This document shows, in pieces, positions 1,028 to 51,797 of a stretch of 64,000 nt of DNA. Each line of letters begins with the position of its first letter. Positions within the stretch are counted from its first letter, which is position 1. The stretch is from Verrucomicrobiia bacterium (GTDB lineage: Bacteria; Verrucomicrobiota; Verrucomicrobiia; Limisphaerales; UBA1319), in assembly GCA_963664225.1 (NCBI GenBank), contig OY760937.1:1984001-2048000 (forward strand). Direction: 5' to 3'. Position numbers and translations under genes: made by a program. The notes under the pieces are model-generated. The model saw nothing but the letters and a program-made list of their open reading frames with translations. It did not search any database and was not told the DNA's origin.

Positions 1028-2662
1028 TCAAAGCAATCCGCCGCTTCGGAACAGGTAAGCGGGTGTGCAACTCCAGGCGTGGCAATAGCTGTTGATCAGG
1101 GGATCGCCATAGGGCGAGAGCATCGGATTCGCCGGATCGTAAACTTCCCAGAAGGTGTCCGCCCCCGCCTGAACCATGCTGCCCCAGTAGCCTTGCACCA
1201 GTTCGAGCGCCTCGGCCTTCAATCCGCACTTGATGGCTGCCTCCACAAAGTAGTGATACAAATACGGTCCGCCGGGGCGCACGGCATCGGGAAGGTTGCG
1301 CACCGCGCGCACGGCAGCCGCGCCTTCGGACGGAGTGGCGATTTCCGAGAGAATCATCCAGGCCTGCGTGGCCCAGGAAACCTGCTTTTGCGGACCGCTC
1401 ACAAATACCTTTTGTACGGGATCCAAAAAGGCTGAACGGGCGGTGGTTGTCAGTGCCTCAATCCGTTTGGAGTATTCGGCCGCCACCGCATCGGCCCCCA
1501 CTTCGCGGGCCAGCTCAACCGCTTTTCGCAGTGAAAACACAAAAATGGCGTGCATGGCCGCTGTGCGGTCGAGGCCGTCCTTCCAATCGACAAACACCCA
1601 GGATCCTTTCGGCGCCTCGAATACTCCATCCTTCCCGACATATTGAGTGAGGATTTCGATCTGCCTGCGCGCCACCGGCCACAGCTCCCGCGCGGTCCGC
1701 CAATCCTTCGTGGCGCGCGCATAATCGAGCAACAGCACCACATAGAGCGCCGCGTAATCGATGATGTATATATGCCCGCTCTGGGCACTGGGGCGCTCAT
1801 AAATGCAGGATGGCATAAAGCCGTCCTCACGGGGCAGACCGGCGAAAAGATAGAGACAGCGCTTCACCAGATCGTCGTTCTGGAACGTGTCGTAGTTGGC
1901 CAGGGCCTGCAGACGCACATCCCCGATCCAAAGGCGACGGTCGCGCTTCGGACCGTCCTCAAACACCGTCTGCATGCAGTTGCGCAGCGTGTTGAGACTC
2001 ACCTCATCGATCCGACGCAGGGATTCGGGAGTCCCCTGTGGGAGGGGTCGCTGGTTTTTAGCCGCAGAAGATATTGCGGTCGCACGGATGTCATTAATAC
2101 GCACGGTATAACTCGAAGAAATTGCCGCGATTTCGATTTTTACATAGCGGAACGAATATCGGCGCGGCAATTGGATGGTAGCCGGCACTACGTCGATGTT
2201 GATCACCTCGTCCTGCAACCAGGATCGGCTCAGGCCGCCTTTGTAATGATCGAAGGATTCCGCAACTTCGGCGGGCACTTCGCCAAATGTGAACTTGATT
2301 CGCACAGGAGAGTCCACGGTGCCCGCCGCTCCGAGGACGCTGAAAACGAGATGTCCTGTCAGATACTCGCCAAAATCCAGGATGACCGTATCGCCATTGC
2401 GCATAACGCGTTCGCGGAGCGCCGATGCGGGCGAAACCGTGTCCATGCGCCAGCGCAGGAACCGGGCGCTGTCCGCGATGGGGTTGACGATGCTTCGCGG
2501 CATAACCGGCGTCTCGTGGAGTTTGGGTTTGAGTTTGTCGGCAAGCTTGAGCCACCGATTTAGCTGCGCTTCCTTCGTATCCTCGGGTCTCCCCGCACCC
2601 CATGTGAAAGTGGGGGCCAGGGCTGCGATTGAGGCCGTCTGCAAAAAGTGTCGCCGGTTCAT
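1028..2662 (-). CDS. Tat-exported alpha-L-rhamnosidase-like glycoside hydrolase (GH78)
   Basis: MNRRHFL Tat signal; DGPKRDRRLWIGD, TFWE and SYCHAWS motifs. Confidence 0.85.
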   Translation of the reverse strand: MNRRHFLQTASIAALAPTFTWGAGRPEDTKEAQLNRWLKLADKLKPKLHETPVMPRSIVNPIADSARFLRWRMDTVSPASALRERVMRNGDTVILDFGEYLTGHLVFSVLGAAGTVDSPVRIKFTFGEVPAEVAESFDHYKGGLSRSWLQDEVINIDVVPATIQLPRRYSFRYVKIEIAAISSSYTVRINDIRATAISSAAKNQRPLPQGTPESLRRIDEVSLNTLRNCMQTVFEDGPKRDRRLWIGDVRLQALANYDTFQNDDLVKRCLYLFAGLPREDGFMPSCIYERPSAQSGHIYIIDYAALYVVLLLDYARATKDWRTARELWPVARRQIEILTQYVGKDGVFEAPKGSWVFVDWKDGLDRTAAMHAIFVFSLRKAVELAREVGADAVAAEYSKRIEALTTTARSAFLDPVQKVFVSGPQKQVSWATQAWMILSEIATPSEGAAAVRAVRNLPDAVRPGGPYLYHYFVEAAIKCGLKAEALELVQGYWGSMVQAGADTFWEVYDPANPMLSPYGDPLINSYCHAWSCTPAYLFRSGGLL

Positions 2663-2669
2663 GTCGCCA

Positions 2670-2698
2670 AGACTAAAAGACAGCGTGAATCAAGGCAA
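2670..2698 (-). promoter_or_regulatory. sigma70-like promoter, leaderless architecture, for the GH78 gene
   Basis: TTGCCT-N17-TAGTCT then 7 nt to ATG. Confidence 0.5.
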
Positions 2699-2732
2699 TG
2701 GAGTTCTTGCGAATCCATTTGAAAAGGGTTGC

Positions 2733-2798
2733 GTGCTGTTCCGGTTGCAAATCCGTGGCGGGCGATTACGATGCCGACATGAACTCCCTGATTGCAGC
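2733..2798 (+). repeat. ~65-bp duplicated promoter/start segment, copy 1
   Basis: Near-identical to 4498-4562; contains TTGCAA-N16-TACGAT-N6-ATG. Confidence 0.85.
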
Positions 2799-2828
2799 CC
2801 CGCGAATAACCCTGGCTGCGCTCTCACC

Positions 2829-4460
2829 ATGAAAAACCTAATTGCAACCATGCTCCTGCTTGGCGGTCTGCAACTCACCGCGGCTGAAGCCTCGAAGCCG
2901 AGCCTCGTCTCGGAGGGATTGTCGGGCTACATCAGCATGGATGTGCCGGCGCCCCCGGAGGAATACGGTTACGGGGTGAGCCTCTACGCGACCGCCTGGC
3001 CCCTATTGGAACGTCCACTAGGAGATTTTCAGATTGGCCTGGCCTCGATCTGGATCGTGCCCGAGAATCGGAAGATCAACTATTCCCTGCTGCCCACAGG
3101 AACGGTGGCTCGCGACAATTGGCCAGAGCGCGGGCCCAGTTATCGGGATGTTTTTCAAACGATCGAGGGGGGACTTGGCTTCTGGGGTAGCACTCATTTT
3201 GGATCGGTTACAGCCAAGTTTCGGATGAATGGCACCGCCAACGGCTACAATCATGAAATCGCCTCACCGGGCTGGGGCTTTGGCAACACCACTGCGCTCA
3301 AACCTGACGAAATGGGCATCGCGCAACTAAGCTCACGGCTTCTGGTCGCGCCTGACGGACTCACCTTCGCGGACGGAACCTGCGGTGAACTGTTTGGCTA
3401 TGCCTGGATGGTGCTTCCGTTGACTCAAGCCAAAACGACCACAGCGGGACTGCCTGTTACCACAGGCAACCAATCCTGGACGCTTTTCATTAATGCGAAG
3501 AATTTCAGGGGACCGGTCGCCTTTTTTACACCGGCCACCTGGAGTCGCATTTCCCGGAGGCATCCGCCGGCCTTGGGACGGGGACTGGACGCCCGGCCCG
3601 GCCTGGTCACCGGCGGCGCCATCGAAGTCAATACGGTGCCCCGCTTCATCGCCACCGATGCCAGAGGCACCCATTACAGCCGCATCCCGCGTCTGCAATT
3701 CCCCGCCGATGAACAAGGTCGCACCATCCTGATACATAACCTGACGCATTATTCCAAAGACGCACTCTATCGTCAGGTGGAGATCTGGATGGCTGGGGGT
3801 GATGCAGCCTCCGGAAAGTTCGAGGGAAAGGCGTCTATCACTCCAGCCTGCAAAGCTGGGAGGCTATCCTTGCGACAGGGAAAACTGCCAATCCTCGGAC
3901 TTGAGAATTGGGTGGAAACACAGGCCTTTGATCAGGCCACTTTCGGACTGCAATGGAAGCGGTCCGTGCTGGAGCCATGGACCGGTTCAATGCGGCGCGG
4001 CGGTTTTCCAGATTTTGCCCGCCAGGAAGGCAATGAATTGCGGGCCATCACCTCCGCTGGAGTCCCCGAGGAAACCGGCTTGAAGGAGGCGCGTTTCCAG
4101 CCGGCCGTCACAAACCAGTCTTACACCTCGCCTGACAAGGGCGACAACGTGTGGTACAGACCCGGTCCCAAAGCGGGACCTTTTCAGGTGAAACTGGGGG
4201 ATGGCAGTGTGGTCACCTACTGGTGGTATCGGTTCATCGATCAGCCCGCGCTGCAGGACGCGGACCTAAGCCAGGCGGAGAAGGAGCGGCTGCAAACCCT
4301 GGTTGAAAAGATTCACGCCCAATGGACGCCGGACAAGGAATACCTGCCGCCGCCCGCGATGGGAACGCTGGCGACACTCGATGCCTCACTCATAGTCATG
4401 CCACCAAAGGGGCTCGAAGCGGGTTACGTTCCGATTGTGACACGCCAATCACCGCAATAG
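2829..4460 (+). CDS. Secreted hypothetical protein (543 aa)
   Basis: Long ORF; signal peptide MKNLIATMLLLGGLQLTAA at ATG 2829; no family recognised. Confidence 0.8.
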   Translation: MKNLIATMLLLGGLQLTAAEASKPSLVSEGLSGYISMDVPAPPEEYGYGVSLYATAWPLLERPLGDFQIGLASIWIVPENRKINYSLLPTGTVARDNWPERGPSYRDVFQTIEGGLGFWGSTHFGSVTAKFRMNGTANGYNHEIASPGWGFGNTTALKPDEMGIAQLSSRLLVAPDGLTFADGTCGELFGYAWMVLPLTQAKTTTAGLPVTTGNQSWTLFINAKNFRGPVAFFTPATWSRISRRHPPALGRGLDARPGLVTGGAIEVNTVPRFIATDARGTHYSRIPRLQFPADEQGRTILIHNLTHYSKDALYRQVEIWMAGGDAASGKFEGKASITPACKAGRLSLRQGKLPILGLENWVETQAFDQATFGLQWKRSVLEPWTGSMRRGGFPDFARQEGNELRAITSAGVPEETGLKEARFQPAVTNQSYTSPDKGDNVWYRPGPKAGPFQVKLGDGSVVTYWWYRFIDQPALQDADLSQAEKERLQTLVEKIHAQWTPDKEYLPPPAMGTLATLDASLIVMPPKGLEAGYVPIVTRQSPQ

Positions 4461-47571: not shown

Positions 47572-47988
47572 TCAGTGGTCATGACCGCCATAAATCCACA
47601 TGGGCTCGGTCTTGCCCGCGCGCTCAAATCCGCACTTGCGATAGAAATCCAGAGCGCGTCCGTCGGCCAGAAGTATGTGCTGGTGAAATCCCTCGTATCG
47701 CGCCAAGAGCCGCCGCATAAGCTCCGCGCCAATGCCGCGCCTCTGATACTCCGGCAGCACCAGCAAGTGCGGGTAGTAAACCACCAGACAACCATCCGAA
47801 ATGGCATTGCCAAGTCCGACAAGCTTCGCCCCATCCCAAGCCGTGACTAAGGAGTGAGACGCCAGCAGCGCCTTATGCAGCAACTCCGGCTTCTCTGCGG
47901 AGGACCACTCGTTCGCACGATAAAGAGCCAGAATGCCCTCCAGTGCCAACTCCCGCCCGTCGCTGTAACGAATGCCGTTGGATTTCAT
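47572..47988 (-). CDS. GNAT family N-acetyltransferase
   Basis: LLVLPEYQRRGIG motif A; FYRKCGF. Confidence 0.92.
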   Translation of the reverse strand: MKSNGIRYSDGRELALEGILALYRANEWSSAEKPELLHKALLASHSLVTAWDGAKLVGLGNAISDGCLVVYYPHLLVLPEYQRRGIGAELMRRLLARYEGFHQHILLADGRALDFYRKCGFERAGKTEPMWIYGGHDH

Positions 47989-48137
47989 GAGTGTGATTCG
48001 GTATTTGTGTCGTGCATTGCGATGAAATCTGCCTTCTGAATGGCATCGACATCAGCATCCAAGTCCTCCTCGCGACGTGGCTGCTGAAAGGCACCAAACG
48101 CGTCCTCAATAATCGCCTGGATTTGCGCCCTGTTCAT
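47985..48137 (-). CDS. Short ORF (50 aa), possibly a gene remnant, coupled to the GNAT gene
   Basis: MNRAQIQAIIEDAFGAF...; its stop overlaps the GNAT start (ATGA). Confidence 0.45.
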   Translation of the reverse strand: MNRAQIQAIIEDAFGAFQQPRREEDLDADVDAIQKADFIAMHDTNTESHS

Positions 48138-48176
48138 TCTGATAACTTTTTGCTTTCCTCAAACACGTCCTATTTA

Positions 48177-50151
48177 GTAGAGTAGGCGAAATGGACGGAT
48201 TGAATGGCCGTGGCCAATGACCGTCGCATTTCGCCCCTCATCGAACCGGACAGGCGGTTTTCCCGCATCCGGCTCTCCGGGGATCATACGTTGCATCGCT
48301 TCGACGTCATCGTTTCCATGCCGCATATTCCGGCATTTGGTATAAACCATAACGCTCATAGAGATCCTCCTTGGGGTATGTGGACCATTGCGCCCGACTA
48401 CATCCGTGTTTGCGCCACAACCATCGTTGTAACTTGCTGCTGACGTATTCGTTCATCTGGCCCATCACCTTGGTGCTGTTCCCGTAGTGAAAGTAACCCT
48501 TCCAACCTTTGAGTTTCTTGTTGAGCTCGGGAATCACCTCTCCGATATCACGCCATAGCGTGCTTCGGTTGAGTTTCTCCCGAATCCCGTCTCGAAACTT
48601 CTTCTGGCTCTTGGGATGGGGTTCCACATGCGGATATTTCCATTTCCCCTTCCCCTGTCGCATTGTTAGCGCGAATCCCAAGAATTTGATGCCATCCTGG
48701 CGGAGGTCCACCAAGCGGGTCTTCTTCTCGTTGAGCACTAACTCGCGTTGCTTCAGCCATCGTTCCAGTCGTTCCATCAGTTCCCGTCCCTGCCCCGGCT
48801 GTCCGAGTATCACGAAATCATCCGCGTATCTCACCATCACGGGTTTGAGTTCGCAGCGTTCGTTGACTTCCCAATCCAACTGGTTGAGGTATGCATTGGC
48901 TAAAATCGGCGATACAACCCCGCCTTGCGGAGTCCCCCGTCGATTCTGACCTTGCCCCCCCTTTGTCCCGCCTTTCCCTGTGTCGCTTTGCGGTTCATTC
49001 ACGGGCGCGCGCAGCCATCCTGCGATCAGCTTGAGAATTGTTCCATCGCTGACCCGCTTGGCCACTATGCGCAACAAACGCCTGTGGGGAATGCTGTCAA
49101 AATACCCGCTTAAGTCCGCGTCTATAACTTCGACGCGTCCTGTCAGCGTAGCCTTCTTGATCGCCTCCATTGCTTGGTGGGCATTGCGTTTGGGATGATA
49201 GGCGTAACTGTTCGGATGACTATCGGCTTCCAGAATCGGCAGCAATACAATCACCACCGCTGTCTGCACCACCCGGTCTTTCACTGTCGGGATGCCCAGG
49301 GGTCGCAGCTTCCCGTCTCCTTTTGGTATATACACACGCTTCACCGGGCTTGGCCGATACTTCTTCGTGCGTAACTCCTCCAGCAGTTGGTTCCGCCATT
49401 GGTCCCAGGCTTCGTCGCTGGCAAGATAGACGTCGCATGTCTGCCCGTCGATCCCAGCCGCGCCATTGTTGTGCGCCACGGAGGCCATTGCCGTTTCCAG
49501 CACGTCCTTCCGCAGCAGTTCTCCGTAGAGGCTGTAAAACCGATACTTCGGCTCAGCCTTGGCTTTGCAATATAGCGCTCGCTGCAGCTTTTGAACTTTT
49601 ATCGGGGTTGTTATCCGTTGAAAAAGTGTTTCCACTCCCTCAAGGCCATCTCCCTGTCCCTCGCTGTTTTGATTCGCTTCGATCCAAGTGCCTTCCCTTG
49701 GCTCCGCCGGGGTTTTGGTCGCCCCAGCTTCTTCGCTACTATGGAAGACTCCGACTTCTCTGGCTGCCCGTGCGGCCTCGGAGGGTGTTCCTCCTTGCAC
49801 CGGCGGTTGAGGCTTTATCGCCCCGCCTCCAGAGATCTCCCAGCTTACCTTGGTTTCCCTTCCTGTCGTGTCGCCCTCGCTGACTCCGCCGGAATCAACA
49901 GCGCCCATTTGACGATTTGATGACGCCGCGTTTCTGCCTTCGCCGTTCGGGTAGCGGCTCGGCTTACCGGTTATTTCGGTTTCGGAGCTCATTTGATGAG
50001 GTTTACTTTCGTTACGACCCGACAGTTCTTTCAGCGTCCCGCTTGTGGTTCGGCCTCACGGCCTCGTCCCGGACGCTGCATTTCGGTCGTGAACCGTCTA
50101 ATTCGACCGGCGGGACTTTCACCCACGAGGCTACCAATTTCACTGGCGCAC
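48177..50151 (-). mobile_element. Group II intron (1975 nt) with EBS1/EBS2, IIB-like
   Basis: 5' GTGCG at 50151; domain V GAGCCGGATGCGGGAAAACCGCCTGTCCGGTTC; domain VI ending CCTACTCTAC at 48177. Confidence 0.95.
48307..49635 (-). CDS. ltrA: Group II intron reverse transcriptase/maturase, no HNH endonuclease domain
   Basis: RPLGIPTVKDRVVQ, DADLSGYFDSI, GTPQGG, RYADD, FLGF, domain X; probable start GTG 49635. Confidence 0.93.
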   Translation of the reverse strand: METLFQRITTPIKVQKLQRALYCKAKAEPKYRFYSLYGELLRKDVLETAMASVAHNNGAAGIDGQTCDVYLASDEAWDQWRNQLLEELRTKKYRPSPVKRVYIPKGDGKLRPLGIPTVKDRVVQTAVVIVLLPILEADSHPNSYAYHPKRNAHQAMEAIKKATLTGRVEVIDADLSGYFDSIPHRRLLRIVAKRVSDGTILKLIAGWLRAPVNEPQSDTGKGGTKGGQGQNRRGTPQGGVVSPILANAYLNQLDWEVNERCELKPVMVRYADDFVILGQPGQGRELMERLERWLKQRELVLNEKKTRLVDLRQDGIKFLGFALTMRQGKGKWKYPHVEPHPKSQKKFRDGIREKLNRSTLWRDIGEVIPELNKKLKGWKGYFHYGNSTKVMGQMNEYVSSKLQRWLWRKHGCSRAQWSTYPKEDLYERYGLYQMPEYAAWKR

Positions 50152-50152
50152 A

Positions 50153-51684
50153 CCCGAACTCCGAGATAGAAAAAGAGGTCGCAATGCGCAACCTTCTGAG
50201 GCAATAGGGTTTGATGCTAAACAAGCCCGCTTCAGACTCGCACAAAACGACCCCAGTCGAAATTAGCGCTCTTTTCGGCCAAGCCAAGCTCTATCTGGAT
50301 GAGACTCCCAAGGCCATAACCCCCTTCGGCGGTCTGGCTTCATTCATAACCTTTTTGGGTCAGATCGGCTATGCGCAGGCGGTGCAGCGGTGCTTGCCGT
50401 TTGCCGCGCCCACTTCACCTAATGCCATTCCTCTAGCCCATACGCTGACCAGTTTTATCGTATCTGTGGTGGCGGGAGCACGCCGCTTTGCCCACTGTCA
50501 GTGGCTGCGTGCCGATCATGTTCTGCACGCCATGCTGGGGATGGAACGTTTCCCGGGCGATGACACCATCCGCAACTTCTTCCTGCACTTTGGCCAGGGC
50601 CACATCGAAGCGTTCTGGCGACCGCTCTGGCGATGGCTGCTCAATCTGCTGGCCTGCCCCAAGGCAGGCTTCTCGTTGGATCTGGATTCGACCGTGTTCT
50701 GCCGGGAGGGTTCGCAGGAGGGGGCTGCCAAGGGGTACAATCCACGCCGCAAGGGGCGCAAGAGCCATCATCCGCTCCTGGCGGTGCTGGCCGAAGCGCC
50801 GTTTATCCTGCATGGATGGTTGCGCAGCGGCAACACCGGAGCCGCGCGCGGGGTGGTGCCGTTTTTGCAGGAGGCATTGGCCCTGTTGCCCGAGGGAACG
50901 TGGATTCGGTGCGTGCGTGCCGACAGCGGGTTCTTCGATGAGGCGTTAGTGACGTTTTTGGAAATGCGCAAATTAACCTACATTGTGGTGGCGCGCATGA
51001 CCTCCACGATCAAATACCATTGCGTGGGAATCCAGAACTGGAAAGCCATCGATGAAAATCATGCCGTGGGGGAGTTTAGAGCCCAACTCTTTGGCTGGTC
51101 CACTGCCCGGCGATTCGTGGTGCTGCGGGAGCGGATCAGGGAAGACAAGGAGGCTCTGGGTCGCAAGCTCATTGATGTGCCCGGTTACACCTTTCGAGTG
51201 TGCGTCACCAACCGAAGTGAAGGCGCGCTGGAACTGTGGAGGGACTACAACGGAAGGGCCACCATCGAGCAGCGGATCGAGGAGCTGAAGAATGATCTGG
51301 CTGCCAACGGTTTTTGCCTGAAATCGTTTTTCGCCACCGAGTCGGCGTTTCTGGCGGTGCTCTTCACATTCAACCTGCTGAGTCTTTACCAGCATCAGAC
51401 CACTCCAACCCAGCCATACCGCCAGCCAGGAACATTGCGGACGACGGTTTTTCTGGCGGGAGCCCTCTTGGGAACGATGGGGCGTGATGTGGTGGTGAGG
51501 CTCTCGGCGGCCTGGGGTGGACTGGCTAAACACAAGCCGTTGATAGAAACCACGTTGAACTGGTTGAAAAGCGCGTCGCCGAAGTTGGTGCCACCGGAAG
51601 CCCGGCAAGCTTTCGGAGGGGGCGGAATATGACCGGAGGGGTTAGCGGTTCCCTAAAAAAACCGACCTAACTTCGGAGTTCGGG
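50153..51684 (+). mobile_element. IS1380-family insertion sequence (1532 bp)
   Basis: 12-bp perfect IRs CCCGAACTCCGA / TCGGAGTTCGGG; 5-bp TSD TTTAA restored on removing the intron. Confidence 0.92.
50211..51632 (+). CDS. IS1380-family DDE transposase
   Basis: TPFGGL, LDLDST, GYNP, HPLLA, LRSGN, VRADSGF, YNGRATIEQRIEELK. Confidence 0.93.
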   Translation: MMLNKPASDSHKTTPVEISALFGQAKLYLDETPKAITPFGGLASFITFLGQIGYAQAVQRCLPFAAPTSPNAIPLAHTLTSFIVSVVAGARRFAHCQWLRADHVLHAMLGMERFPGDDTIRNFFLHFGQGHIEAFWRPLWRWLLNLLACPKAGFSLDLDSTVFCREGSQEGAAKGYNPRRKGRKSHHPLLAVLAEAPFILHGWLRSGNTGAARGVVPFLQEALALLPEGTWIRCVRADSGFFDEALVTFLEMRKLTYIVVARMTSTIKYHCVGIQNWKAIDENHAVGEFRAQLFGWSTARRFVVLRERIREDKEALGRKLIDVPGYTFRVCVTNRSEGALELWRDYNGRATIEQRIEELKNDLAANGFCLKSFFATESAFLAVLFTFNLLSLYQHQTTPTQPYRQPGTLRTTVFLAGALLGTMGRDVVVRLSAAWGGLAKHKPLIETTLNWLKSASPKLVPPEARQAFGGGGI

Positions 51685-51797
51685 TTTAAAACATACAAAT
51701 CCAACAGATAACAGGCTAGTTTTGTCTGTGTTTGCTCTCGATCAAGTTTTGCATTTCAGATTGAAGGTTTTTCCAGGTTCCTGCATCTAAAGGAGAT

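Follow-up and report, generated by a model that had tools for sequence, protein, structure and literature searches.

The closest described system is RmInt2 of Sinorhizobium meliloti GR4, an endonuclease-less group II intron for which the published account places all seven copies within the inverted repeats (IRs) of the insertion sequence (IS) ISRm17, the two IRs offering two sites on opposite strands, and reports a strand pattern for the use of nascent lagging strands as primers by introns of this kind (PMC4615759). ISRm17 is annotated to the ISNCY/ISDol1 group (PMC10194956). RmInt1, a class D (IIB3) intron of ISRm2011-2, is described in the same text as endonuclease-less, with an IS as its natural home and with replication-fork-dependent retrohoming biased towards the lagging-strand template (PMC4615759); it lies inside the IS, at one site per IS and not at the ends, where, according to a second account, it blocks IS spread (PMC5894124). 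Here, we describe a group II intron from a Verrucomicrobiia bacterium (GTDB lineage Bacteria; Verrucomicrobiota; Verrucomicrobiia; Limisphaerales; UBA1319; assembly GCA_963664225.1, contig OY760937.1), found in a window of 64,000 nt, by which we mean the whole stretch analysed (positions 1,984,001 to 2,048,000 of the forward strand). This intron lies 1 nt outside an IS1380-family IS, and it very probably reads, by RNA pairing and without the help of an endonuclease, the terminal IR both of this transposon and of a miniature inverted-repeat transposable element (MITE) with nearly the same ends. We report the anatomy of the locus, the order of events, the pairing of the intron's exon-binding site 1 (EBS1) and the strand pattern of the intron copies in the genome, which is a single contig of 5.78 Mb (studied as G000).

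On the minus strand, the 5' junction reads ...CTATCTCGGAGTTCGGG-T, after which the intron begins with GTGCGCCAGTGA; it runs from 50151 to 48177, and its terminal letters are ...CTACTCTAC. This agrees with a preliminary description of the window, in which the 5' exon was identified as the left IR of the IS, read outward, plus one flanking base. The elements of the locus are as follows, in window coordinates.

48173..48176: the remaining four bases (TTTA) of the left copy of the target-site duplication, parted from 50152 by the intron

48177..50151, minus strand: complete group II intron, 1975 nt, GTGCG...CTAC; one of 19 identical genomic copies, with boundaries common to all copies

50152, minus strand: T of exon position -1, read on the intron strand; it opens the left duplication copy and is all that separates intron from IS

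50153..51684, plus strand: IS1380-family insertion sequence, 1532 bp; five identical genomic copies, four with the intron 1 nt outside one end

50153..50164, plus strand: left terminal IR, CCCGAACTCCGA, 100% complementary to the right IR

50211..51632, plus strand: IS1380-family DDE transposase gene, 473 aa (NF033539, PF13701)

51673..51684, plus strand: right terminal IR, TCGGAGTTCGGG, unoccupied here because its target is presented on the non-permissive strand

51685..51689: right copy of the target-site duplication, TTTAA

The order in which these elements arrived can be read from the target-site duplication. On the plus strand, TTTA (48173-48176) and A (50152) together give TTTAA, identical to 51685-51689. 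When the 5 bp on each side of 26 elements in the genome were compared, with the intron removed in silico where present, a perfect 5-bp duplication was seen in 22 of them, nearly always TTTAA or TTAAA; this included five of five IS copies and 17 of 21 MITE rows. In 16 of the 17 intron-bearing elements, the perfect 5-bp TTWAA duplication appears only after intron removal, the exception agreeing at 4/5 bases. Since removal of the intron restores the duplication, the intron arrived after the transposon and split the duplication between bases 1 and 2, as the preliminary description had proposed for this one locus. The intron copies are identical, whereas the MITE copies are 92.6-100% alike, which likewise shows that the intron spread later.

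The same geometry recurs throughout the genome. All 19 intron copies are 100% identical over positions 1-1975, and each is preceded by a 5' exon ending ...TCGGA(G/T)TTCGGG-T and followed by a 3' exon that starts T(T/A)AA, while the flanking DNA differs at every site. Because 19/19 copies carry the same 13-nt 5' exon motif, insertion at this motif is not a matter of chance; copies at unrelated sites, which would have spoken against the proposal, were not seen. Four introns lie 1 nt outside IS ends (three left, one right), 13 lie 1 nt outside MITE ends (eight and five at the two end types), and two lie at solo IR-like sites, where a stretch of 13-16 nt equals the MITE terminus and no element can be made out behind it. 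In 17/17 elements, the insertion point is 1 nt past the last base of the IR, within the duplication, so that, as had been noted for this locus, IRs and transposase are left intact. The MITE, not the IS, is the main target of the intron in this genome; the earlier idea that the intron is programmed to the IR of the IS thus holds in so far as an IR plus one T is targeted at 19/19 copies, and fails in so far as the IS accounts for the smaller part of them.

The duplication contributes to the target as well. Of the 51 IS or MITE ends with the IR 12-mer, 50 have an outward flank that begins with TT; since TTWAA reads alike outward from both ends, a T at -1 and a T at +1 are supplied by almost every transposition. 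This is stronger than the previous suggestion that transposition of the IS into T-flanked sites creates new homing sites, which it otherwise supports.

There is nothing unusual in the IS itself, which has the CC-starting IRs and 5-bp duplications of the IS1380 family. Its transposase scores 227.2 bits against the NCBIfam IS1380-family model NF033539 (cut-off 180) and 95.7 bits against PF13701, and the 12-bp IR pair is perfect; repeat detection extends it by the flanking A/T to a pair of 13 nt, 100% complementary. Assignment to the family therefore rests on a transposase above the hidden Markov model cut-off, on the perfect IR and on the duplication at all five IS copies, which are the sole genomic matches to this transposase (tblastn, E <= 1e-3). 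The MITE is 162 bp long, with no room for a gene, and is present in about 22 genomic copies at 92.6-100% identity; its termini, CCCGAAATCCGAAATA..., match the IR of the IS at 11/12 bases and the TTWAA duplication is common to both. The MITE may be mobilised by this IS1380-family transposase.

Other arrangements of these elements were seen in the genome (genome coordinates). Two MITE::IS composites, at 828002-831675 and 2984655-2988328, carry the 1532-bp IS in the same central TTWAA site and in the same relative orientation, and each has its own 5-bp duplication (TTGAG and TTTAA, respectively); they represent either repeated site-specific insertion or a composite that transposed as a unit. The intron is found at opposite IS ends in the two composites, and yet on the plus strand in both. 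A further MITE copy, at 264554-266580, is interrupted at its centre by another element, about 1.86 kb long, whose ends are ACGCACTTTACCCC... / ...GGGGTAAAGTGCGT, and the centre of the MITE seems to be an insertion hot spot. The two solo-site introns are at 2065438 (minus) and 3974267 (plus). At the first of these, the 3' exon (TAAATCAAT...) resembles the MITE interior beside the central TTAAA, which suggests that a nested element has decayed here, rather than that the intron hit an ectopic site by chance.

The intron has the features of a mobile group II intron, with a ribozyme core recognised by covariance models, GTGCG...CTAC ends, and a reverse transcriptase (RT) that carries YADD and a maturase (X) domain. 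Its main parts are these.

48177..48277, minus strand: domains V and VI, catalytic core and intron 3' end (RF00029)

48307..49992, minus strand: longest open frame of the intron-encoded protein (IEP), 561 aa, ...VMVRYADDFVIL...; RT at aa 222-441 (YADD), maturase/X at aa 464-536

49874..50119, minus strand: domain I segment that holds the internal loop proposed as EBS2 and the EBS1 hairpin (RF02005, D1-D4-6)

The two Rfam matches score 49.3 bits for RF00029 (gathering 40; model positions 1-77 of 77) and 54.9 bits for RF02005 (gathering 49); the literature found gives no mapping of the Rfam D1D4-6 model onto a Zimmerly/Toro class. The IEP matches TIGR04416 with 356 bits (cut-off 300) over aa 162-529. 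Its domain matches are RVT_1 (1.8e-34) and GIIM (1e-13), and nothing else; there is no DNA-binding or endonuclease domain, and the protein ends about 25 aa past the GIIM match. Since RT and maturase are its only domains, the IEP has no DNA endonuclease. Its true start is probably further downstream, because the N-terminal 130-160 aa or so of the frame overlap ribozyme domains. The presence of 19 identical copies at one target motif is an indirect sign of splicing and retrohoming, and the intron would seem to be active or to have been active very recently. Two public metagenome runs (X6 and X7) hold a near-identical intron, the X6 contig differing at 7 positions in 1911 nt.

The IR 12-mer occurs 56 times in the genome. 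With the used strand defined for each chromosome region by the introns found there, which makes the comparison partly circular, introns occupy 19 of the 26 TT-flanked IR ends on the strand used in the region and none of the 24 on the opposite strand; ends without TT are never occupied (0/6), and no element is occupied at both ends. Six minus-strand copies lie at 1.66-2.19 Mb, and 13 plus-strand copies at 2.99-5.61 and 0.05-0.95 Mb. The dnaA gene is at 2.990 Mb on the minus strand, and GC skew is positive from 3.7 Mb through 0 to 1.3 Mb and flat or slightly negative from 1.3 to 3.7 Mb, with a sign switch near 1.3 Mb. If the origin is taken to lie near dnaA and the terminus at about 1.3 Mb, 18/19 copies have their sense strand on the lagging-strand template. 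The pattern fits replication-fork-primed retrohoming and is the one described for endonuclease-less introns whose primers are nascent lagging strands (PMC4615759). What tells against it is that the origin is placed from dnaA only, that the skew stays flat between 1.3 and 3.7 Mb and the replichores so delimited would differ in length (about 4.1 and 1.7 Mb), that a plus-strand copy at 2,986,270, 3.8 kb from dnaA, may be on the wrong side, and that seven apparently suitable ends are empty. The chromosome looks either to have very unequal replichores or to have been rearranged recently.

How the target is read follows from domain I, where three segments have to be distinguished.

49946..49952, minus strand: EBS1, ACCCGAA, in the 9-nt loop of a GCCG/CGGC hairpin; pairs with TTCGGGT at -7 to -1

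49971..49979, minus strand: CCGAAAUAA, proposed as EBS2; variable portion of the asymmetric 12-nt internal loop at 49982-49971

49983..49988, minus strand: 5' strand of the helix GCUCCG, which contains the CUCCG of the segment formerly taken as EBS2; pairs with CGGAGU at 49888-49883

EBS1 is as the preliminary description had it. The segment lies in a hairpin loop in the Rfam model, in a single-sequence fold and in the RNAalifold consensus, and its partner, TTCGGGT, consists of six IR bases and the flanking T. The loop is complementary to exon positions -7 to -1 at 7/7 bases in five introns, each with a different sequence, of which four (L058, L059, L061 and L033) are relatives from elsewhere that are discussed below.

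This intron: EBS1 ACCCGAA, exon -7 to -1 TTCGGGT

L058: EBS1 ACCTGAA, exon -7 to -1 TTCAGGT

L059: EBS1 TCCTGAA, exon -7 to -1 TTCAGGA

L061: EBS1 GCATCCA, exon -7 to -1 TGGATGC

L033: EBS1 GCCGTAA, exon -7 to -1 TTACGGC

In two further relatives, L063 and L064, this pairing extends over 6/7 bases.

For EBS2, we consider the internal loop the likelier candidate. It is unpaired, hypervariable among relatives, and lies between conserved helices, directly 3' of the GCUCCG helix; over 9 nt, CCGAAAUAA can pair with TTATTTCGG, which occupies -18 to -10 in MITE-type exons (duplex -9.8 kcal/mol), and this would leave a 2-nt linker (-9, -8) to intron-binding site 1 (IBS1), the exon partner of EBS1. The preliminary description had instead taken the IS as the cognate target and CTCCGA(A) at 49987-49981 as EBS2, so that the two EBSs would read the whole 12-bp IR plus T in 13 contiguous bp. 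The segment is present at that place, CUCCGA can form a perfect duplex with TCGGAG (-13 to -8 of the IS exon), contiguous with IBS1 (-9.0 kcal/mol), a second duplex, of UCCGAAA with TTTCGGA, would be possible on the MITE exon (-8.3 kcal/mol), four of the five IS copies are occupied, and the U that gives the CUCCGA match is specific to this intron, relatives having C. Yet five of the six CUCCGA bases lie within the helix GCUCCG/CGGAGU, which is drawn by the Rfam covariance model, the minimum-free-energy fold and the 6-sequence RNAalifold consensus; folding domain I thus places the EBS1 segment in a loop, as expected, and the CUCCGA segment in a helix. The helix occupies pair columns 24-28/123-127, with a compensatory change at columns 25/126 (C-G in five sequences, U-A in this intron), and since G has become A on the partner strand where C has become U, the helix appears to be maintained rather than its strand exposed. 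The CUCCGA segment is, moreover, conserved among relatives with differing exons, unlike EBS1 and the neighbouring loop. The internal loop has weaknesses of its own, in that CCGAAAUAA forms only 4-5 bp with the IS-type exon (-6.1 kcal/mol), where the CUCCGA segment would give six contiguous bp, and in that the exons of relatives pair unconvincingly with both segments. Covariation among homologues, then, is seen for EBS1 and not convincingly for EBS2, and we regard the version with the IS as cognate target and CUCCGA(A) as EBS2 as rather unlikely. Whichever location of EBS2 holds, the IR is read by the intron.

Recognition of shape instead of sequence has also to be considered. Class C (IIC) introns, which are endonuclease-less, are found behind transcription terminators or in attC sites, where they lie just beyond a palindromic feature that recurs in intergenic DNA; they recognise a stem-loop and a short IBS1, without an EBS2. 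By analogy, the hairpin of the palindromic MITE in single-stranded DNA might be recognised here, with insertion at its foot and the sequence match secondary. The MITE is about 73% self-complementary along its whole length, and 13 of the 19 copies stand at the foot of such a potential hairpin; four copies, however, are at the ends of a 1.5-kb IS and two at solo sites that have no partner arm, all 19 sites share 13 nt complementary to EBS1, and domain I is IIB-like with an EBS2-type loop. The intron thus differs from class C in recognising at least 13 nt of sequence, in its domain I and in its use of sites without a hairpin, and guidance by shape is very unlikely. Still less probable, to the point of being barely credible, is the reverse order of events, in which IS and MITE insert beside the 5' end of the intron, or intron and transposon move as a unit. 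One-ended transposition of IS1380-family elements is said to carry neighbouring DNA along, which would favour such hitch-hiking, and the adjacency of intron and element is perfect (17/17). Against this, the 5-bp duplication is split by the intron in 16/17 cases and never flanks element plus intron, nor the element alone; the intron lies outside the IR; flanking DNA is different at every site; and seven permissive-strand element ends have no intron, including one on an IS copy that is unoccupied at both ends. The split duplications, together with the identical introns and diverged MITEs, exclude transposon insertion beside introns as well as joint movement.

We therefore return to the reading in which the endonuclease-less intron finds the transposon IR by RNA pairing, for which we propose the following course. 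EBS1 (ACCCGAA) would pair with the last six bases of the IR and the first T of the TTWAA duplication, and EBS2, most likely in the internal loop (CCGAAAUAA), would pair with IR bases from -10 upstream after the 2-nt linker, the T at +1 being the second base of the duplication. The intron RNA would then reverse-splice between duplication bases 1 and 2, with the result that it comes to lie 1 nt outside the element and IRs and transposase are untouched. With an IR at either end and a TTWAA that reads alike outward from both, each element offers one site per strand. Lacking an endonuclease, the intron would use only the site on the lagging-strand template, with complementary DNA synthesis primed at the replication fork, presumably by nascent strands; this restriction would explain both the single occupied end per element and the strand switch between chromosome arms. 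It counts against this account that no EBS3 was located in the intron and that contigs from four public runs (X3, X5, X6 and X7) stop at the intron borders, without joints.

The strategy itself is already known. Both IRs of an IS serve a group II intron as homing sites in the published case of RmInt2 and ISRm17 (PMC4615759), and the possible novelty raised in the preliminary description was overstated. RmInt2 resembles the present intron in its endonuclease-less IEP and its multiple copies per genome, in the use of IRs at both IS ends, so that one site is always on the lagging-strand template, and in a strand bias towards that template; both ends are used here too, as the three left and one right IS sites and the 8 + 5 MITE sites demonstrate. 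The likeness would extend to a 2-nt linker (-9, -8) between IBS2 and IBS1, an A/U pair at +1 and a tolerance for EBS2 pairing of about 4 bp. The present system differs in its insertion point, in that RmInt2 lies within the IR, where its authors discuss control of IS mobility, and this intron lies 1 nt outside, in the duplication, with the element intact; in a target that includes the transposon's own duplication; in having most of its sites at MITE ends; and in its host IS, IS1380 as opposed to the ISNCY/ISDol1 group of ISRm17 (PMC10194956). The intron lineage also appears to be different from that of RmInt1/RmInt2, as judged by plasmid matches and not by direct comparison with the RmInt1/RmInt2 sequences: Sinorhizobium does not occur among the ten genera named for the 118 plasmid records found at E <= 1e-60, and it is only when the limit is relaxed to E <= 1e-25 that 108 records from this genus come up. 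In the full-text literature, which leaves out subscription journals and some supplements (e.g. Fig. S1-S2 of PMC4615759), we found no paper on intron homing to the ends of IS1380-family elements or MITEs.

What emerges is a layered parasitism among mobile elements, in which the IR gives IBS2 and most of IBS1 and the TTWAA duplication gives positions -1 and +1. Since the intron lies just outside and both IS and MITE are intact, its relationship with the transposon is, on the evidence of the sequence, commensal rather than suppressive, unlike that of RmInt1 and RmInt2 inside their IS. The 19 identical copies, with one end occupied per element and a strand switch from arm to arm, would amount to a genome-scale natural record of fork-direction-dependent, endonuclease-independent retrohoming.

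Relatives of the IEP were sought in genome contigs (four loci), metagenome contigs (five, one of them a duplicate of L061), 400 genomes of the same phylum and 40 closer relatives; none was found in viral contigs. Close relatives (65-79% identity) were found only in a handful of short contigs from unrelated phyla. One of these, the metagenome contig L063, carries an intron with 65% IEP identity that starts at 3029, a single T after an IS end at 3027. The transposase gene of this IS (1519-3006) matches PF13701 at 1e-34 and NF033539 with 175.5 bits, just under the cut-off of 180, with IS1380 as the best family, and its product is 30% identical to the transposase described here. The IS is bounded by imperfect repeats, CCCAATCTCCGCAGTTGAAG at 1459-1478 against the reverse of 3008-3027, that are identical at 15/20 positions with an 11-nt exact core. 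L063 is thus a case of the same geometry, 1 nt outside the right IR, at a different member of the IS1380 family, with the reservation that no recognisable duplication surrounds this IS.

For the other relatives, the expectation that the 5' exons of homologues would be IS termini is borne out less well: some offer too little to go on, and the rest show no visible IS end at the insertion site. Read on the reverse strand, the exons of L058, L059 and L064 have ends like those of IS1380-type IRs (CCTGAAAAC..., CCTGGAAAAAGCAG...), on contigs that, L059 apart, are short. The L059 intron lies 65 nt downstream of a phosphatase-like gene, and the DNA upstream is an ordinary gene end. In the metagenome-assembled genomes that hold L058-L061, neither the exon motifs nor the intron 5' motif turned up anywhere but at the single copies already known, and two of these genomes have IS1380-family transposases, with no matching ends in those loci; the exons of L058, L059 and L064 are therefore not demonstrable as IS ends. 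The L061 intron is not at a recognisable IS end. The 400 same-phylum genomes gave one match, with 49% identity (G097), whose intron is likewise not at a recognisable IS end, and the 40 closer relatives gave only an ORF-less derivative, lacking the open reading frame (ORF), and fragments. Among annotated plasmids, the nearest IEPs in the 118 records at E <= 1e-60 are 38-42% identical and belong to introns of another Rfam D1-D4 family, those at 38-40% matching RF02003, not RF02005; in three cases examined of these 118 records, the IEPs are not beside IS1380 transposases. Plasmid searches with the L064 exon and the L063 IS yielded nothing useful.

An association with IS1380 ends throughout the lineage is suggested by two independent cases, this genome and L063, whose transposases are 30% identical and whose introns are 65-70% identical, together with the exon ends of L058, L059 and L064. 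On this basis it is conceivable, although we would put the balance somewhat against it, that the lineage is a specialised commensal hyperparasite of IS1380-family transposons and, in passing from phylum to phylum, adapts EBS1 and EBS2 anew to the IR of the family member or MITE that it meets; it would always insert between duplication bases 1 and 2, it would never inactivate the host element, and every transposition would seed two sites, one per replication direction. If true lineage-wide, this would mean that a retroelement has become co-adapted, over a long time, to a family of DNA transposons, and would provide a ready set of natural EBS-target pairs from which retargeting rules could be derived.

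The ORF-less derivative, L033 (G034:C102), comes from the same order and is about 697 nt long, with domains I-III and V-VI kept and the IEP deleted. It may be mobilised in trans, because its EBS1 (GCCGTAA) still matches its own exon (TTACGGC) at 7/7 bases. In another metagenome contig, L065 (1996 nt), the 3' end of an intron (…CTACTCTAC) runs straight into an intron 5' end (GTGCGCC…), representing either a head-to-tail tandem of the kind described for RmInt2 or a multi-copy repeat assembled in circularly permuted form.

The genome also contains a second group II intron family, with four copies of about 1.97 kb that are 99.2-100% alike (5161411-5163379 and 1676532-1678500 on the plus strand, 2329490-2331457 and 5604130-5606098 on the minus strand, in genome coordinates) and only 74-79% similar to the intron studied here, in short segments. 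All of them follow a conserved flank that resembles ...TCTTTGAG..CT(T/C), their 5' boundary being approximate, and this family therefore has its own distinct target. Finally, directly downstream of the intron insertion site in the window are two small adjacent ORFs (47572-48140, minus strand), one of 138 aa at 47572-47988 and a short one of about 50 aa whose end adjoins it, a pair that looks like a toxin-antitoxin arrangement.

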